Part shown: piece after piece, positions 7,981 to 63,231 of the stretch
Position numbering within the stretch: position 1 is the stretch's first letter
Layout of the letters: every line of letters starts with the position of its first letter
NCBI GenBank assembly: GCA_000004985.1
Contig: GG738870.1
Direction: 5' to 3' (one strand)
DNA from: Naegleria gruberi
Lineage: Eukaryota
DNA: 64,000 nucleotides
The notes under the pieces: model-generated
Seen by the model: the letters and a program-made list of their open reading frames with translations, nothing else
What the model was told of the DNA's origin: nothing
Database searches by the model: none
Program-made: the position numbers and the translations under genes

Positions 7981-9168
7981 ATGAACAAAAGTCTACCACC
8001 ACCACTCTCTACCAAGAATTATCAACCTGTTCTCTGTGAACCCAGTCAAAATCCAACATTAATCATTGACAATGGTTCTTCCAATTCCAGAGTTGGTTTC
8101 TCATTTGAAGACATTCCTGGTTCTGTATTTCCTACAGTGTTTGGCAGAGTAGGAGGTAGACCGATTTATATAGGACCAGGTATCGCTAGGGAAGGATATG
8201 TTGGCCATGAAGCATTGTCCAAAAGGGGAATTGCTTCATTGAAATATCCTATTAAGAGAGGAATTGTAACTGATTGGCAATTTATGGAAAAGATATGGAG
8301 CCATAATCTTATTTTGGAAATGAACATTGCTATGGAGGAGCATTGTGTTTTATTGACAGAAACTCCATTGAATCCAACAGCAAATCGTGAAAAGATGTGC
8401 CAATTAATGTTCGAAAGGTTTCGTGTACCAGCAATGTGTGTTGCTGTTCAAGCTGTGTTGTCTTTGTTCGCTTCAGGTAGAAGTAGTGGAATAGTGTTAG
8501 ATTCAGGAGGTGGAGTTTCAAATGTTGTTCCAGTTTATGAAGGTCTTGCCTTGCCACATGCCATTTCTAGACAAGAATTGGCAGGTAGCGATGTGACTGA
8601 TCATTTGATGACATTGTTGATGGATCGTGGTTATAGTTTTATAAGTGCTGAACGAGATATTGTGAATGATATTAAGGAAAAGATGTGTTTTGTAGCTTTA
8701 GATTGTGATTCTGAAAAGAAATTATTCGAAAGTTCGATTCCAACAGCAGATTCCTCATATGAGTTGCCTGATGGAAATGTTATCAATCTAGGTTGCGAAA
8801 GATTCATTTGTCCAGAACTGTTATTCCAACCAAACATGGTGGAAATGGAAGAAATAGGTCTTCATGAATCCATACACAACTCTATCCGAAAGTGTGACCT
8901 CGATATTCGAAAGCAATTGTATTCCAACATTCTTCTCGCAGGAGGGTCTACTCAAATTAAAGGATTTTCTGAGAGATTGTTTAAGGAGTTGAAAGAAATT
9001 ACTTCTTCCTCTGTGGAATTCAATATTGTCACCCCACCAGATAGAAATAATTCTTCTTGGATTGGTGGAAGAATTCTTTCGTCCATGTCAACTTTTGGAT
9101 CAATGTGCATGTCCAAAGCCGAATATGAAGAGATTGGACCTGGAATAGTTCATAAAAAATGTTTCTAA
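7981..9168 (+). CDS. actin-like protein (divergent actin paralog)
   Basis: 395-aa ORF starting at ATG. Strong actin similarity across the whole length: IIDNGSS…FPTVFGR, KRGIASLKYPIKRGIVTDWQFMEKIW, VLLTETPLNPTANREKMCQLMFERFRVPAMCVAVQAVLSLFASGRSSGIVLDSGGGVS, DIKEKMCFVALD, WIGGRILSSMSTF. Confidence 0.85.
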   Translation: MNKSLPPPLSTKNYQPVLCEPSQNPTLIIDNGSSNSRVGFSFEDIPGSVFPTVFGRVGGRPIYIGPGIAREGYVGHEALSKRGIASLKYPIKRGIVTDWQFMEKIWSHNLILEMNIAMEEHCVLLTETPLNPTANREKMCQLMFERFRVPAMCVAVQAVLSLFASGRSSGIVLDSGGGVSNVVPVYEGLALPHAISRQELAGSDVTDHLMTLLMDRGYSFISAERDIVNDIKEKMCFVALDCDSEKKLFESSIPTADSSYELPDGNVINLGCERFICPELLFQPNMVEMEEIGLHESIHNSIRKCDLDIRKQLYSNILLAGGSTQIKGFSERLFKELKEITSSSVEFNIVTPPDRNNSSWIGGRILSSMSTFGSMCMSKAEYEEIGPGIVHKKCF

Positions 9169-12214: not shown

Positions 12215-14126
12215 ATGGCCTCATCACCAACGAGAATTTTTGAAGCCTACGAGATGGTAAGCTATATTGGTGAAATTGAGAACCAACGCACACAATCAAT
12301 ACAAGAACTTGTACCTCTAAAATCAAAAGATCATAACATTTACCTTATGAACGACAGATATGAAATTGATTGTTTCCCTATCGATTATTCTATTCATATT
12401 AAAACGCATCCATTCAAATTTTCCCAACTAAAGAACTCCTCTGAAGCAGATATTTGGAAATTGATCAAGAGGATTGCTCTTCAACAAAGTATATTTAAAG
12501 GTAGATTTATTGGTTTGAAAGGAAAAGACGGCAAGGTTAAAACTGTATCCGAATTTAAGGCTTTTATAGATCAAGTTGATATTCAGACAGATTTAAAGTT
12601 CGTTATTGTTAAAGAGAGGTTTGAGAATGTATTTTCTACCATTGAATCAAGGCTAAACCAATTAAATTCCTTAGAAAGGAACACTTGTTCTATTATCACC
12701 CTGGCAAAGGACGCTTCCTTTAACTCAAGTGCATTGGAAGGGAATATTCACAGCAACAAAGGACGAATTTGAGGCATCCGAAAGTGAGGATGAAGATTCA
12801 CTCACTCCTGATACTAAAGAAATACGAGTACTGAGAAAGATGCATGAAAGATTCCAAACCGATATAATTAATGGAAAGGTTTATACACTCGATGAAGAGC
12901 TACTGTTGACAGAACACAAAGAAATGGCCATTGGTCTTGGAGAGGGTGCAGGAAGATTCAGAAGTGTAAATGTTTATGTTAAAGGATCTTCCCACAAGTT
13001 TGCACCTTATGATACAATAAGAAGCAAGTTGGCATCTGTTTTAATGATTTTCTACTCCAAAATCACCAGCGCCAATTCGTTGGAAGAACGAATTAAGGCT
13101 GCAATTTACATCCATTATGAAATTGTTAACATTCACCCATTCAGAGATTACAACGGAAGAATGGCAAGATATATCATGAACTTAGTTTTATTTCAGTATT
13201 GTAGAATTCCTCCGGTATCAATATTGCCAGGAATTAAGGATGAATACTTTGCTTCTGTTCGCGAAGTTGATAAGAATAATGATTATAGATTTATTACTAC
13301 CATCATTACAGAATCAATTATTAGGTCTATCGAAAAAGCATTTTATTATACTCACATACAGGATGGAATGGGACTATTGTTGAATAGATTTACATTGGAT
13401 CAGCTTGCAGAATATTGTAAATCTAACAACATTACCACTGACGAAAGTTCCAAGTCTAAAATGATAAGAGATATTTTGAGACTCTCTAATAGAATTGGAG
13501 AATTTGCTTTTGTGTTGGAGTTGGAAAAACAAGATTTACAATCAATAGTTCTGGACAATAATCTATCCACTTTTTCTCAATTGCAAACATGTTTAATAGA
13601 GATTTTATTTTCTAATCCAAACACCAACCTGAAACAATTTCTCAATTTATTCAACACTGAAGGTTTAGACAGATTCTTGGAATTATTAAGAATGAAAGAT
13701 GAGTCCTCTAAGGAAGGAAAAATTACAGCTATCATGGAAGAAGTATTAATATTAGGTATGAGAATCGGATTTGGTAATATGAAGGAAGAGAACATCTCTT
13801 CTTTATGCAATGAACTGAAGATCTCTTCATTTGGTTCCAAACTTGAAAACATTCATTCAATGTTTGGTGTTATTTATCCTCATTACTCTAGATTTAAACA
13901 TTTATTATTTAAAGAATACATTTGGGATATTAAGAAAGGTATTTCTTTGGAACAATTATATCAATTTCATTACTATGACTTACTCGTTTATGCAAAAAAA
14001 CAACAATTGAATTTAAAACATAAATCCAAGAAGAGCATTTGTAAGAATATTTTAACCAGTGGTCATATTAAGAGACTTAATGAGAATGACGATTTGTTGC
14101 AAAATCTCAAGAAAAAGAAGTTATAA
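12215..14126 (+). CDS. Fic (Fido) domain protein, putative AMPylase. Two ORFs (12215..12772 and 12729..14126) in different frames.
   Basis: HPFRDYNGRMARYIMNLVL matches the Fic core motif HPFx(D/E)GNGR (D/E-G read as D-Y-N-G here). ORF1 starts at a real ATG. ORF2's listed start is GTG. The frames overlap over 12729–12772. Confidence 0.65.
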
Positions 14127-51761: not shown

Positions 51762-53828
51762 ATGCCGAAAGTATCTGCAACACCAGTTTCTTCCTTCAAC
51801 ATGCGAGGTCAGGTGTTTCAGGTGTCGTTGCTACTGGTAGTGATGCTAATCATCATGATGACAACAGGAAGGAATGTGGAGGCCAACACGTTATCTTCTG
51901 AAACGAAACTAGAAGAATTTGTAGAATGTCCTTTCGAATATTACACTTCTGGGCAATTAAACACGAAAAAGTATGATCAGTTGGTGGCAGAATGTGCTTT
52001 TGCTCGAGTCCCTTTCCAATACGAAACTAACACCACAGATATAACTTCACTCTTCATCAAGAGAATTAGAAAACGAGACGAAACTAATCTGCCAAGAAAA
52101 ATAGTTTGGTTTATTCCAGGAGGTGGATTTGGACCTGGTCACTCAACCATTCACCTCGATGTGGAAATGGTTAAATATTTCATCTCTGAACTGTATAACA
52201 GAACTGACAATTATCAATATTCCATTTATAGTGTCGAACATCGAGGTGTTGGAAGAAGTGATAGATTATCTTGTCAATCAAGTCAAGCAGAATCACCTTC
52301 TAGTGATGGTGGTTATTATATTACTAAAAAGGAATGGCCAAAATGTGTGCAAGATTTGTCAAAACTTGAAACTCTGGTTTATTCTTCGGATAATGCTGCA
52401 ATTGACTTGTTGAAAGTAATGAAAATGGTCAAGACAATGTACAGTGATTCAATTCATTACATGTATGGATATTATTATGGAGCTTTTTGGATTATGAAAA
52501 CTTTGAGATTTACTGAATTAAATGATTTGACCATGTTAAATTCAATTAAGGGAATTATGATTGAGAATCCATTCACTAAAAAGTTTCATTTGAATGATAT
52601 TGATTCAGTCATGATTGATACTTTCAAAAATGTGTTGAAATTTTGCTCGGATAAAACACTTGCTGATAAGTATGACAAGACGTGTTATGAAAAATTGGGA
52701 GGACAAGATGTCTATGCATTATTGAAAAGTACAATGAAGAAGGTTTACAATGTAGATTTTGATTCTCATTCATCAGGACATTCAGTGATGAGTGGAGGTG
52801 GAGGTGGTGGAGGTAGTGGAGGTGGAGAGTCTGATGGTGGACATGGAACTGTACCAAACACTCCATGTGGCCTTGTTTCTTCCAAACTTCCATTCTACAA
52901 TTTAACAAGAATATTCGGTTCATTGATGAGGACAAGGAATGGGCAAGCAATCATTCCTGCCATTATTTACCGATTCAATAGATGTGATGACAGTAAGGAT
53001 GTTCACATCTTGTACAATTTGGTCAAATATTATGCAACATATGTTGAATCCAAATCATATGCCACTAACTATTTGTTGGATAGTGATTCTGTATTTTACA
53101 ATATTGTCTTTTCAGAGTTTTGGAAGGAATCTCACCAGACAGAGAGTGAAATTTCTGAAGATATGGCTCATTCCTATGTAAATACAGGTTTTGATTTGAA
53201 ACTGGCTCAAGTTTGGAATGCAACACATCACTGGGAGGGCCCAGAAATCTACACTCCTAAAATTGACACGTCCTTCTCCAATCCAACAAATATTCCAATT
53301 TTGGTTATTGATGCTGATGCAGATACTTATATGACTTCTGATTATCCTACTGATTTTGAGAGCTCTCTCAGTGGAACAAATCACAAACTTGTCACCATTC
53401 CATTTTCTCTCCCACCAACAATTGTCAATTCACCAGTGAAAGGAAAATCAGATTGTGGAAGCCAAATACTAACTAGCTTAATAACATTGGATTCAACTAA
53501 TCCAAATGTTCAACAAGTCAACACTCAATGCCTAGATCAATTACAATTCAATTTCACTGGATCATCTTCCTTCAACAAGTTAGTCTTCCAAGTTTCAGAT
53601 ATTTACGAGGGAGTCTATGTCTACTCAACCTTCTACACTGGAACCATCTCTACCACTCTCTTCTTTGCAGTTGTTTTGGGAATTTCCATTGGTTTCCTAG
53701 TTGTTCTCATAGTTGCCATGTGTGTCACTTGTACCATGAGATTGACCTTCCTTAATAACAAGGCCTATAAGAAACTCACCTCAAGCACAGCAAGTGGTCA
53801 CGATCCATCCATGTGGAACAATCTATAA
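51762..53828 (+). CDS. type-I membrane alpha/beta-hydrolase-fold protein (proline-iminopeptidase/S33-like)
   Basis: ATG start with N-terminal signal/TM segment (VFQVSLLLVVMLIIMM). VWFIPGGGFGPGHS…SVEHRGVGRS resembles the S33 HGGPG/HxRGxGxS region. Gly-rich linker SGGGGGGGSGGGESDGGHG. C-terminal TM FFAVVLGISIGFLVVLIVAMCV. Confidence 0.4.
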   Translation: MPKVSATPVSSFNMRGQVFQVSLLLVVMLIIMMTTGRNVEANTLSSETKLEEFVECPFEYYTSGQLNTKKYDQLVAECAFARVPFQYETNTTDITSLFIKRIRKRDETNLPRKIVWFIPGGGFGPGHSTIHLDVEMVKYFISELYNRTDNYQYSIYSVEHRGVGRSDRLSCQSSQAESPSSDGGYYITKKEWPKCVQDLSKLETLVYSSDNAAIDLLKVMKMVKTMYSDSIHYMYGYYYGAFWIMKTLRFTELNDLTMLNSIKGIMIENPFTKKFHLNDIDSVMIDTFKNVLKFCSDKTLADKYDKTCYEKLGGQDVYALLKSTMKKVYNVDFDSHSSGHSVMSGGGGGGGSGGGESDGGHGTVPNTPCGLVSSKLPFYNLTRIFGSLMRTRNGQAIIPAIIYRFNRCDDSKDVHILYNLVKYYATYVESKSYATNYLLDSDSVFYNIVFSEFWKESHQTESEISEDMAHSYVNTGFDLKLAQVWNATHHWEGPEIYTPKIDTSFSNPTNIPILVIDADADTYMTSDYPTDFESSLSGTNHKLVTIPFSLPPTIVNSPVKGKSDCGSQILTSLITLDSTNPNVQQVNTQCLDQLQFNFTGSSSFNKLVFQVSDIYEGVYVYSTFYTGTISTTLFFAVVLGISIGFLVVLIVAMCVTCTMRLTFLNNKAYKKLTSSTASGHDPSMWNNL

Positions 53829-56084: not shown

Positions 56085-57214
56085 ATGACAGGTTTAGTTG
56101 TCAAAAAAATGTTTACATTTATTGAGCCCTTGAAAAAGATATTGTCTGTAGTAATTCGCACCGTCGATAATTTGCGAGAAGAAAACAGAATCAATGATGA
56201 AAGGGAAGGAAGAAATCAACCATCCGAAACTAGTAGCAAAATATCAAACTATTCAAAAAGTGAAATAGAAGAAACCTACAAGGTAAAAATTTGCGAAAAA
56301 TTGGGACCAGTTGTTGACATTTCAAAACTAGGACAAGGCTCAAGTGGTGAGGTATTCAAGGTTTGTTTCATTGACCATTAATTATTAGAAATCACATTTA
56401 GGTTCACACTAAAAGTGAAATTCTTGTTGTGAAAATAGTCAACTCTAGTGAAAGAGCAAAAAAAGAAGCTAAAAGACACTTCTCACATCCTCATCTGCTT
56501 GCAATATATCCAGAGAAAACCTTTATAGATGGTGAATACCACTATATTGTGAGCGAATATGTTGGAGAAACTAATCTGTGTGATTATAGACGAAACTTGG
56601 AAAATATAGAAGAGGAATTAGTATGGAAAATGATCAAGCAGATGTACAAGGCACTAACCCATATGCATTCAAAATATATCTGTCATGGAGATTTCAAACT
56701 TGCAAACATTTTTGTAAAAAGTCATCATGATTTTCGTTTAGTGTTGGGAGATTTTGGACTTTCGAATAATGAAGAATCTGTAAACCTCAACATACTTGGA
56801 GGAACTCTTGGATTCCAAGCACCTGAACTTTTCAATGGTTTGACTGAAAAGTGTGATGTGTATTCTTTCGGAAAATCAATAATTCAACTAATTATTGGAA
56901 CAAAATTTAAACATAATATTTCAAATGAACAACTGATGGAAATGGTTGCAACAAGTCAACCAAAAATATCCTCATCACTCATAGATTTAATCAAGAAAAT
57001 GATTAAAGAAAATCCTGAAGAAAGACTATCACTAGATCAAGTTGGAGTACTTATCAGAAACAAGAATAAACCAAAGCAAAAGCAAACCAAACGAGATTCT
57101 AGTACTGAATCTGAAGAAGAATTAAAATCCTTACAAAGAACCTCCACAGGTGTCCAGAAACAAAAATCTAAACCTCAGACTGGCTTTTTTAGATATTGGG
57201 GTTTTAACAAATAA
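56085..57214 (+). CDS. protein kinase (Ser/Thr or dual-specificity fold). Two exons.
   Basis: Exon 1 from ATG 56085 to …LGQGSSGEVFK (Gly-rich loop). Intron at about 56361..56401 (GTTTGT…ATTTAG, 41 nt, phase 0). Exon 2 carries VHTKSEILVVKIV (beta-3 Lys), HGDFKLANIF (catalytic loop, HGD in place of HRD), DFG, and APE (FQAPELF). Confidence 0.8.
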
Positions 57215-57219
57215 AAAAA

Positions 57220-58664
57220 ATGACAAGTAATCAGCACATTTACACGATTGCCAAAAACTTGAATATTGAACAAGACAAAATTGAAGAAATTGTTGACTGT
57301 GTCTTCAAGGTTGGTTTCGGATTTTGGTTTCTAATATGTTTTTGCAAAGGTAACAATTCATAATTCTTCAGCAACACGGAAAGTTGAACTGTTCGTAGTT
57401 AAAGCTGTACTAAAGTCAAACCATGCTGAAGCAGAAAGTAGAAGAAACTTTAATCATAAGCACTTGATGAAAACCTTTCTAATAAGAAATTTCACTTCTG
57501 CTACACATTATTATTTATTCAGTGAATATGTTGGCGAGCAAAACTTGGTACAATACCGAAAAAATGTTAAAGAATTGCATGAGGAAAGAGTTTGGGATTT
57601 TATTAATCAAATGTCAAAAGCTCTCAATTACATGAATTCATATCCACATTTTACCATTCATAGAGATTTTTAGACAGTTGTAGGTAGATAAAATTTTGTC
57701 CCCAAATTTTTTTTGGCCAAGTCGAAACTCCAGCCATTTTTAGCTTGCGATTTTAAAAAATGTTACAAGTCGAGAATAAACCGTTACATTAGTTGGCGCC
57801 ACGAAAGAAGACGTTACACTTTCATCAAATAAACTTTAATTTCATCAAACAAAAAAAACCAAACCTCTCTTCACTTTTTGGTTGTTTTCCAACACAGGAT
57901 TTCACTATTGGTGCAACAACAACAACATCTTGAGAAATAACATTGTCCTCCAACACTTTCTTCATGTCCCGTTTTTGTTGTCCCCAAGCCAAGCCTTTTA
58001 GACTTGTAAAAAAATATTGGTCAGAGCAACAAATGTCCATTACCTACAACTGTCTAGAGATTTTAAATTGGAAAACATTATTCTAAAGAGTGGACATGAT
58101 TTTCATCTTGTTTTGGCTGATTATGGATTATGTAAGAGTGAGCTCACTAATTATGTGATCAGTGACAGGGGAACATTTGAATTTAAAGCACCAGAATTGA
58201 AAAATCAAAAAGATGAACAAGATGTAGAATTCCCTTTCAAATGTGATGTTTATTCATTTGGGAGATCAATCATTCATTTCATTTTGGGAAGTCAATTTTT
58301 AACTCTCGCTCAAAATGAAATCATCCTTAAAAACGATCCAAATAAGAAAACAGTGATGGATCACCTTATGGATCATAAACCATCTGAGGCCCTTTTCGAA
58401 TTGATTGAGAATATGATTGAGGAAGATCCAAAGTTTAGATTTGATATTAAGGAAGTAATTGCCTTTTATGAAAACAACAGACCAAGCAAATCAAAGACAT
58501 CCTTAGTCTTTCCAAAACCTGGGGAAATGAAACAGAAGATATCTAACAAAACCCCAAATCAAAGAACATCTAATTCCACTTCCTCCTCCAACACTATTTC
58601 ACGCTCTAGTCAAGGAATATCCAAACAACATAAAACCAAAGATAGGAGAGGTACAAAAAGATAA
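57220..58664 (+). pseudogene. tandem kinase paralog, degenerate (no Gly-rich loop, DFG→DYG) and interrupted by a TIR element within the catalytic-loop codons
   Basis: Its ATG lies 5 nt after the stop of the upstream kinase. Exon 1 MTSNQHIYTIAKNLNIEQDKIEEIVDCVFKV. A 56-nt intron (GTTTCG…TTCAG) joins …ATRKVELFVVKAV…YLFSEYVGEQNL…HFTIHRDF. The 386-bp insertion follows, then KLENIILKSGHDFHLVLADYGLCK…FKAPEL… Collinear with the upstream kinase. Confidence 0.55.
57671..58056. mobile_element. hAT-like non-autonomous TIR element (MITE) with 8-bp target-site duplication GAGATTTT, inserted in the kinase paralog coding sequence
   Basis: 16-bp perfect TIR TAGACAGTTGTAGGTA … TACCTACAACTGTCTA. Flanking direct repeat GAGATTTT at 57663–57670 and 58057–58064. 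Removing the element plus one TSD copy restores the open frame …HFTIHRDFKLENIILK… collinear with HGDFKLANIFVK of the neighbouring paralog. Confidence 0.75.
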
Positions 58665-59277
58665 TTCTAATTCCTTATAATCATTGATGGTTGTTCAAAC
58701 TCTTGATTGTAATGGACCTGTCATATTAAATTAAGAGTAATAGAATTTTTCGTGTCTCTAATCAAGCGATCACTCAATGTTGTGCACTTTCACTCTGGTT
58801 TGAAGTTTATTTCGATTGTTCTCATAGCTGGATGAGAATGAACGAATCAAATGATTGAAAAATCAAGATTGCTTCCATTACAAAAAGTGTAATATGAAAG
58901 GTTATCAATGAAATGCTCAATTTTACAGAAGCTCAATTGGTGATTCTTTGGAAATCCCATCAAATTTTCATAGTTAGGATAAGCCGTCCGAACAACTGAT
59001 AATAATTGAATATTGCAACTTATCGTACTTTCAATATTGGATTTTTTTTCATTCCAAGATATTCCACACATACTATTGAACATGTGCACAATCCAACCAT
59101 TGAAGTTCTTTCATTCTGTTCTTGTTTAATTCCCCGCACTGATTAACAAAGACCAAATGAACAATGTCCAAAATCTGTGGCTACTCTCTTTTTGGAACAT
59201 TATTCATCTTCTTTCATACCAAAAAAATCAATATATACTAATCAAACGAAACCTTTCAAATCTTTAAAAACTGGAAC

Positions 59278-62208: not shown

Positions 62209-63231
62209 TTACTGATACACTCGAATGATACAAGCTTGTTGATCGACAACATAGAGTAGTCCAGATTGATCGTCATAGAAAATTCCAAATGGATGGAGAT
62301 GTTCCTCGTGGTGAATTTTAATTTCACACTCCTGCAACAAGTCCCAAACAACAATCCTCTTATTTCCATAATCTGAGATGTAAATTCTATGTTGACTCAA
62401 TTCTTTTGCAACCGAAAGTGGATGTTTCCAAGGATTTTGTACTTGAAACATGTCTGAGTTTTCACATTTGCCATCGGTTAATGTAATTTTAAAGACCATA
62501 TTAGATTCGTGATTGAGAGCAATGAATTCTGAATTTGAAATGGCAAACAGTCCAGGAGAATCACATAATGACAGGACTGGATATTTGGCCAATAGAGAAC
62601 CATCACAATCTCTATGAGCATTTAATCCTTGTGCATCATTGTTCCATCTCAATACTACCTTTTCCTTTCTACTTGCATCATGTATTACCATTATAGATCC
62701 AGACAGTTTTTCAGAAATCTTCCACATGGGCTCTATATCTTTCAACTTTACTTGTGCATGTTCAACCAATTTGGCAATATTAAATTTAAAAGTAATTCCA
62801 TTATCTCCAAAATAAATATATTCATTTCCAGCACTATCAGACTCAATCCAAAAATCAGTGACACTCTCTTCCAAAGTAAATTCAGTCCTCAATTGATAAT
62901 TATCCAAATTGAGAAATACTATTCTATCATTATGATCATCAGCAATTACAAGACAACCATGATGGCGAGCAATTTTAATATCGGAAGGATAATGAAGTTT
63001 CAACTTTTTGTCTTGATCAGAAACTTCTTCCACATCTCCATCCTCGGTAATAACAGGCCTTTGATAGCCAATCGTTTTGTGGGGAGTAAATTGCATGGAG
63101 AAGGTTTTGCTCTTTTTGTTGGACGAAAGTTTTTCACGAAGTTTAGCATAGAGAGGATTGCAGACTTCGGATTGATTGAAATCAAAGAAGGTGAAAGAAA
63201 CTTTATCTTCATCATTATCGTGATTGATCAT
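62209..63231 (-). CDS. NHL-repeat beta-propeller protein
   Basis: ATG start. Repeated blade-like units with hydrophobic–Asp–x–x–Asn–x–Arg–(I/V)–x–(V/F) signatures (CLVIADDHNDRIVFLNL, HRIYISDYGNKRIVVWDL, LLYVVDQQACIIRVYQ). The downstream minus-strand ORFs 61745..62127 may be further 3' exons. Confidence 0.5.
   Translation of the reverse strand: MINHDNDEDKVSFTFFDFNQSEVCNPLYAKLREKLSSNKKSKTFSMQFTPHKTIGYQRPVITEDGDVEEVSDQDKKLKLHYPSDIKIARHHGCLVIADDHNDRIVFLNLDNYQLRTEFTLEESVTDFWIESDSAGNEYIYFGDNGITFKFNIAKLVEHAQVKLKDIEPMWKISEKLSGSIMVIHDASRKEKVVLRWNNDAQGLNAHRDCDGSLLAKYPVLSLCDSPGLFAISNSEFIALNHESNMVFKITLTDGKCENSDMFQVQNPWKHPLSVAKELSQHRIYISDYGNKRIVVWDLLQECEIKIHHEEHLHPFGIFYDDQSGLLYVVDQQACIIRVYQ

Follow-up and report, generated by a model that had tools for sequence, protein, structure and literature searches.

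The 64,000-nucleotide stretch analyzed here as a whole (the window) is nuclear DNA of Naegleria gruberi NEG-M from a 418-kb scaffold, and contains exact matches to proteins of this organism, including EFC43968, EFC44075, and EFC43977. Pfam scans place ordinary cellular genes in the neighborhood of the locus, namely a formin, RGS proteins, a RasGEF, actins, a DHHC palmitoyltransferase, and a Fic protein. Two divergent actin-family genes (1094-2284 on the minus strand and 7981-9168 on the plus strand) are found within 7 kb of one another, and a protein with a Fic/DOC domain, which is unusual in a eukaryote, is encoded at 12729-14126 (plus strand). The locus itself consists of two protein kinase genes in tandem, the second of which is interrupted by an insertion of 386 bp that ends in terminal inverted repeats (TIRs) and is bordered by a target-site duplication (TSD). 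Its features are as follows, L010 and P0012 being a contig from another sample and the kinase protein it encodes (see below):

56085-57214, plus strand: kinase 1, the intact upstream tandem paralogue, with exons at 56085-56360 and 56402-57214 (Pkinase, E=2e-38; 37% identical to kinase 2)
56361-56401, plus strand: intron of kinase 1, 41 nt, GT..AG
57220-57309, plus strand: exon 1 of kinase 2 (MTSNQ...VDCVFK), with a degenerate glycine-rich loop and a Pkinase match that starts at profile position 43
57310-57349, plus strand: intron of kinase 2, 40 nt, GT...AG, retained in L010
57350-57670, plus strand: exon 2 of kinase 2, part 5' of the insertion, ending in ...YPHFTIHRDF
57663-57670, no strand: left TSD copy, GAGATTTT, codons aGA GAT TTT (R-D-F), present as a single copy in L010
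57671-58056, plus strand: the insertion, a non-autonomous TIR element of 386 bp, missing from the empty-site contig L010, which has one copy of the repeat; no Pfam, protein, Rfam, or tRNA match
57671-57686, plus strand: left TIR, TAGACAGTTGTAGGTA, the first 3 nt of which (TAG) are an in-frame stop
58041-58056, minus strand: right TIR (TACCTACAACTGTCTA on the plus strand), complementary to the left TIR at 16/16 positions
58057-58064, no strand: right TSD copy, GAGATTTT, from sequence reading and a repeat search
58065-58664, plus strand: exon 2 of kinase 2, part 3' of the insertion (KLENIILK...DYG...APE... to the stop), with a protein sequence 100% identical to P0012

Kinase 1 carries HGD in place of HRD. 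In kinase 2 the G-loop is devoid of all three glycines (IEEIVDCVFKV versus GQGSSGEVFKV), and VxK, HRD, N, DYG, and APE are kept. Both tandem paralogues are thus atypical, and based on the missing G-loop glycines and on a Pfam match that begins only at profile position 43, kinase 2 may have been so before the insertion took place. A homology search at E ≤ 1e-10 did not retrieve either kinase as a reference protein of N. gruberi, and the spliced kinase models and the truncated product have no exact match in the protein collection; the pair may be absent from the reference annotation or be modelled differently there.

The ends of the inserted segment display the two hallmarks of a class II transposon. 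In the 64-kb window, the pattern search located TAGACAGTTGTAGGTA at just two places, also when up to three mismatches were tolerated, and these two form a perfect TIR (16/16), the sole such pair in the window, so that the perfect 16-bp TIRs described in a first-pass annotation of this DNA are borne out by sequence reading and pattern search alike. Perfect inverted repeats of at least 16 nt within 1 kb are expected ~0.07 times per window (one was observed, and 19 of 20 shuffled windows gave none), and once a direct repeat of 8 nt on either side is required as well, the number expected by chance drops to ~2.5e-6. The second hallmark, the TSD, is found as GAGATTTT on both sides of the element and only once at the empty site of L010; the duplicated 8 bp correspond to codons (A)GA-GAT-TTT of kinase 2. 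If the final TA of the right TIR is counted, the direct repeat extends to 10 nt (TAGAGATTTT, 57661-57670 and 58055-58064). Since the TA that ends the TIR also stands in front of the left repeat, and with one copy only, the length of the TSD is formally 8-10 bp. The 8-bp target duplication proposed at first therefore stands as far as the presence of GAGATTTT on both sides is concerned, its length being less certain in view of the 10-nt repeat. In base composition the element (35.5% GC) resembles the window (~34%), contrary to its initial description as an AT-rich segment. Apart from the TIRs it contains no more than a few short subterminal motifs, with GTTACA present three times, CAAGTC in either orientation, and TTGTCCCCAA close to both ends. 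DNA folding did not reveal any significant overall hairpin (z = -1.6), and the element is therefore not a long-hairpin MITE.

The insertion point (57670/57671) lies between the Phe and Lys codons of the H-R-D-F/K-L-E-N stretch in the second of the two tandem paralogues. An ORF (57464-57673) closes with ...HRDF followed by TAG, i.e., the first 3 nt of the element, and the frame resumes right past the right-hand repeat with AAA TTG GAA AAC (KLEN). Deletion of 57671-58064 in silico yields an uninterrupted kinase of 336 aa (Pkinase, E = 7e-25), which shares 37% identity overall with kinase 1 and aligns with it free of gaps across the junction (HRDFKLENIILKSGHDFHLVLADYGL versus HGDFKLANIFVKSHHDFRLVLGDFGL), …HRDF/KLENIILK… of the excised kinase 2 pairing with …HGDFKLANIFVK… of kinase 1. 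It had been noted from the letters alone that the two flanking ORFs fuse upon removal of the segment into a frame matching the upstream kinase, and that the segment sits between the HRD Asp and the catalytic-loop Lys; the 336-aa kinase and its alignment confirm the former, and the latter can be specified as a position after the Phe of HRDF. In the filled allele, kinase 2 stops at residue 137, at HRDF, on the TAG of the first TIR triplet. The predicted 137-aa product is devoid of the catalytic-loop Lys and Asn, of the DYG motif, and of the whole C-lobe, and the NEG-M kinase 2 is therefore predicted to be a null allele.

A counterpart of the locus that does not carry the element was found in public data. 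When the repaired kinase 2 protein was searched against 5.8 billion proteins (E ≤ 1e-10), a single match was obtained, 100% identical and running across the junction: P0012, an uninterrupted kinase ORF of 267 aa with a Pfam Pkinase domain, encoded on L010, a contig of 1,226 bp from the ENA metagenome assembly ERZ929261 (run ERR1078381, PRJEB11402). Positions 1-590 of this contig align with 57082-57670 of the window at 99.5% identity and positions 581-1226 with 58055-58700 at 99.7% identity, the two alignments sharing an overlap of 10 nt, TAGAGATTTT. The site reads …CATTCATAGAGATTTTAAATTGGAAAAC… (also given as ...CATAGAGATTTTAAATTGGAA...), with a single GAGATTTT, no element, and no footprint. 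In the coding region of P0012, both differences from the window are synonymous. The contig represents genomic DNA and not cDNA, since the 40-nt intron of kinase 2 is retained. L076, a further contig from this sample, matches positions 40090-43375 of the window at 99.67% identity (11 mismatches in 3,286 bp), and the empty allele therefore stems from a slightly different haplotype or strain of N. gruberi. The public "metagenome" ERZ929261 thus holds nuclear contigs of N. gruberi that are 99.5-99.7% identical to NEG-M, and is a source of alternative alleles. The first-pass annotation had proposed to look for empty-site alleles, and one is now at hand, with one copy of GAGATTTT and an intact kinase ORF. 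It follows that the 386-bp segment is a true, recent, and polymorphic transposon insertion with a TSD. The same allele, with its intact kinase ORF, led us to reject the idea of a domain-splitting linker.

The comparison of the two alleles could also be read in the opposite direction, the empty allele being the product of a precise excision in the other lineage and not the ancestral state. Cut-and-paste elements do excise, and the empty site corresponds precisely to one copy of the target. Yet excision of the hAT type normally leaves footprints and none is present at the empty site, and a young insertion is a simpler fit for perfect TIRs, a perfect TSD, and an undamaged ORF, so that we consider an excision very unlikely. 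Even less credit can be given to an artefactual origin, in which a bacterial IS or MITE would have entered a clone while the library was propagated in E. coli, or in which the region would have been misassembled. The NEG-M assembly is indeed Sanger-era and clone-based, the element is known from a single copy, and the sole other allele seen does not carry it. However, the element has no blastn match in 5,426 complete E. coli genomes or 72,556 plasmids, and is therefore not an IS of the cloning host, a candidate that we rejected on this basis; moreover, its base composition is N. gruberi-like, 386 bp is far smaller than an E. coli IS, and a misassembly would not yield such an exact TIR/TSD structure.

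Could the segment be spliced out as an intron, leaving kinase 2 functional? Introner elements are MITE-like transposons turned spliceosomal introns (in Micromonas, Aureococcus, and others), and the element shares with them its TIR/TSD structure and its position within a coding exon of a protist gene, in this case one that already contains an intron and whose downstream frame is fully intact. It differs from them in that no usable splice donor precedes its own in-frame stop: no GT, GC, or AT-AC donor is found at or before the TAG at 57671-57673, and the first GT (57677) lies past this stop; its use together with the AG at 58056-58057 would retain the stop and add 13 nt to the message. That GT…AG is missing from the ends of the segment had been pointed out at first reading, and this holds. 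In addition, the genuine introns of both kinases are 40-41 nt long with GT...AG borders, no Rfam self-splicing intron is matched, and the segment is dispensable, being missing from the near-identical gene of the empty-site allele. As there is no canonical donor ahead of the stop, rescue of kinase 2 by splicing is very unlikely, and together with the empty-site allele this led us to reject the intron or introner reading, to which we attribute hardly any probability.

The element thus has to be considered as a transposon, and its content is that of a non-autonomous one. With 386 bp and a longest ORF of 71 aa, it lies well within the size range of MITEs (under about 800 bp, non-coding). No Pfam domain was detected in any of its ORFs, the 71-aa ORF has no homologue among 5.8 billion proteins, nor among 1.84 billion representatives searched with full HMMER, and the six frames of the element, concatenated, have no protein homologue in either of these collections. 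Likewise, none of nine element or junction ORFs has an exact match in the protein collection, and Rfam and tRNA scans of the region gave no match. A second copy is not found in the 64-kb window, either with the TIR (up to three mismatches) or by blastn of the element. In IMG/VR, a collection that does not include the N. gruberi genome, the TIR 16-mer has nine single matches, all due to chance and none extending beyond 20 nt. The JGI metagenome contigs, also without the N. gruberi genome, gave 65 matches to the 16-mer, again all due to chance, none of which reaches further than 24 nt into the element or is accompanied by a correctly oriented second TIR (GC content of 29-56% in the contigs checked), and no match to a 20-mer of the element; and there are no matches to the left and right 20-mers in the GTDB genomes, which do not comprise N. 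gruberi either. The window contains 40 ORFs with a length of 150 aa or more, among which Pfam scans identified cellular genes only, and no transposase. The term MITE, as applied to this segment in the first-pass annotation, is therefore appropriate for its structure (386 bp, non-coding, with TIRs), the second copy that would go with it being absent from the window and from the collections searched.

Two other regions of the window stood out. A second MITE-like structure of 387 bp (51215-51601) is intergenic, upstream of a gene at 51762, and displays imperfect terminal inverted repeats of 45 nt (82%) with the core TACTGTAAAACCCCAGCCGTAAGACT; its sequence is unrelated to the element in the kinase gene, and it may be flanked by TA, in which case it could be Tc1/mariner-like. 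An ORF of 340 aa (62209-63231, minus strand; EFC44080) has no Pfam domain and clusters at 90% identity with EFC47508, its paralogue from another scaffold of N. gruberi, as well as with members from ENA and Logan; an ORF of 214 aa overlaps it in antisense. The 340-aa ORF may represent a repeated gene, or else belong to some unclassified mobile element.

Based on the length of the TSD and on the terminal bases, the superfamily that appears most likely for the kinase element is hAT, an assignment that we hold at about even odds. hAT elements usually have 8-bp TSDs (PMC12730594). A TSD of 8 bp with symmetric termini is what is found here, its length being formally 8-10 bp. The hAT terminal motif has the consensus YARNG, which the terminus TAGAC matches at four of five positions, the fifth base being C and not G. 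hAT target sites follow the consensus nTnnnnAn (Ac/hobo/Hermes) or nnnTAnnn (Buster), as a statistical preference and not an absolute rule; GAGATTTT and its complement AAAATCTC fit neither of them, both having A as the second base, T as the seventh, and AT in the center (positions 4-5). The hAT-like designation given at first is hence justified as a resemblance (8-bp TSD with symmetric ends, short TIR starting with TAG), whereas membership of the superfamily is not demonstrated, given that no transposase partner was found, that YARNG is matched at 4/5 positions, and that the target consensus is missed.

An origin from another superfamily is a serious contender, its chances falling a little short of even. 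The element would then be either a Mutator-like element (MULE) with a TSD of 9 or 10 bp (AGAGATTTT or TAGAGATTTT), or belong to one of the other superfamilies with 8-bp TSDs (Zisupton/KDZ, P, Merlin, Novosib). Neither the mechanism nor the consequence for the kinase would change, the difference being confined to the mobilizing transposase. The 10-nt direct repeat with its terminal TA, which reappears as the 10-nt overlap of the L010 alignments, is in line with such an origin, as are the target lying outside both hAT consensuses and the C in place of G as fifth TIR base. Furthermore, MuDRF with 9-bp TSDs has been described in N. gruberi (PMC3164196), Zisupton also yields 8-bp TSDs (PMC12730594), and the literature searched contains no published record of hAT in Naegleria, and likewise nothing specific on MITEs; Kolobok, for its part, is documented in N. 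gruberi (PMC9587614). Against this, a 9- or 10-bp repeat can be read only at the price of asymmetric termini, with one or two extra bases at the left end only, whereas the 8-bp reading gives fully symmetric 16-bp TIRs, and the extra TA match has a probability of ~1 in 9 by chance in this AT-rich DNA. Mutator-like elements have TSDs of 9-11 bp and usually long TIRs, typically far longer than the 16 bp found here, and no other superfamily gives rise to nearly as many MITEs with 8-bp TSDs and TAG/CAG ends as hAT does.

When compared to known systems, the element follows the general mode of non-autonomous TIR transposons and comes closest to the hAT-derived MITEs and non-autonomous hAT elements (maize Ds1, rice nDart, "hAT-N" of Repbase). 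It is similar to these in its small size and lack of coding capacity, in its short perfect TIR starting with TAG and its 8-bp TSD, and in the disruption of a gene with a presence/absence polymorphism, but differs in its fifth terminal base (C versus the consensus G), in a target, GAGATTTT, that is off both consensuses, and in that a hAT transposase partner, which would combine a BED finger, a DDE/RNase H-like core, and the hAT dimerization domain PF05699, is not encoded by any ORF of 150 aa or more in the window. With MuDRF and the Mutator-like elements of N. gruberi (PMC3164196) it has in common that it is a DNA transposon of the same species with a repeat readable as 9-10 bp; it differs from them in its short TIR (16 bp) and in the asymmetric termini such a reading requires, a comparison made independently of the MuDRF sequence. 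As to Zisupton/KDZ, P, Merlin, and Novosib, the 8-bp TSD and the TIRs are shared, but none of these transposases is seen in the window. Their typical terminal motifs are unlike those of the element.

The insertion, its TSD, the stop codon it introduces, and its polymorphism can be read directly from the two alleles. We interpret the segment at 57671-58056, with a probability of about 0.92, as a non-autonomous class II (cut-and-paste) DNA transposon of N. gruberi, structurally a MITE, that was recently inserted into kinase 2. Its insertion is recent, given that the TIRs and the TSD are perfect, that the remaining ORF is undamaged, and that another sample of N. gruberi contains an element-free allele. 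A transposase acting in trans would bind the 16-bp TIRs, and this putative DDE enzyme would stagger its cut by 8 bp at the target GAGATTTT within the kinase gene; repair of the gaps would then duplicate the 8 bp, as the structure of the site suggests. With TAG as the first triplet of the element directly after HRDF, the NEG-M allele would be limited to the 137-aa product. We further speculate, with considerable reserve, that the DNA-transposon system is still active in N. gruberi, the element having inserted after the NEG-M haplotype split from one that is ~0.3-0.5% different. Less likely, the transposase could come from a superfamily not yet described for excavates.

[quoted passage not shown] The value of the present case, a real but ordinary mobile-element insertion, is local, and transposons in genes are commonplace. 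It nevertheless flags a gene whose reference allele cannot express a full kinase, supplies a 394-bp presence/absence marker for typing strains or haplotypes, and gives a lead towards a transposase/TIR pair as a genetic tool. If the system were indeed still active, no cut-and-paste element of Heterolobosea would have been documented as polymorphic and recently mobile before this one, and the element and its transposase could serve for transgenesis or insertional mutagenesis in an organism with very few genetic tools. The locus offers a clean case in which a recent transposon inactivates one of two tandem kinase duplicates, with both the filled and the empty alleles available, and shows that at least one family of cut-and-paste transposons has moved recently in N. 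gruberi.
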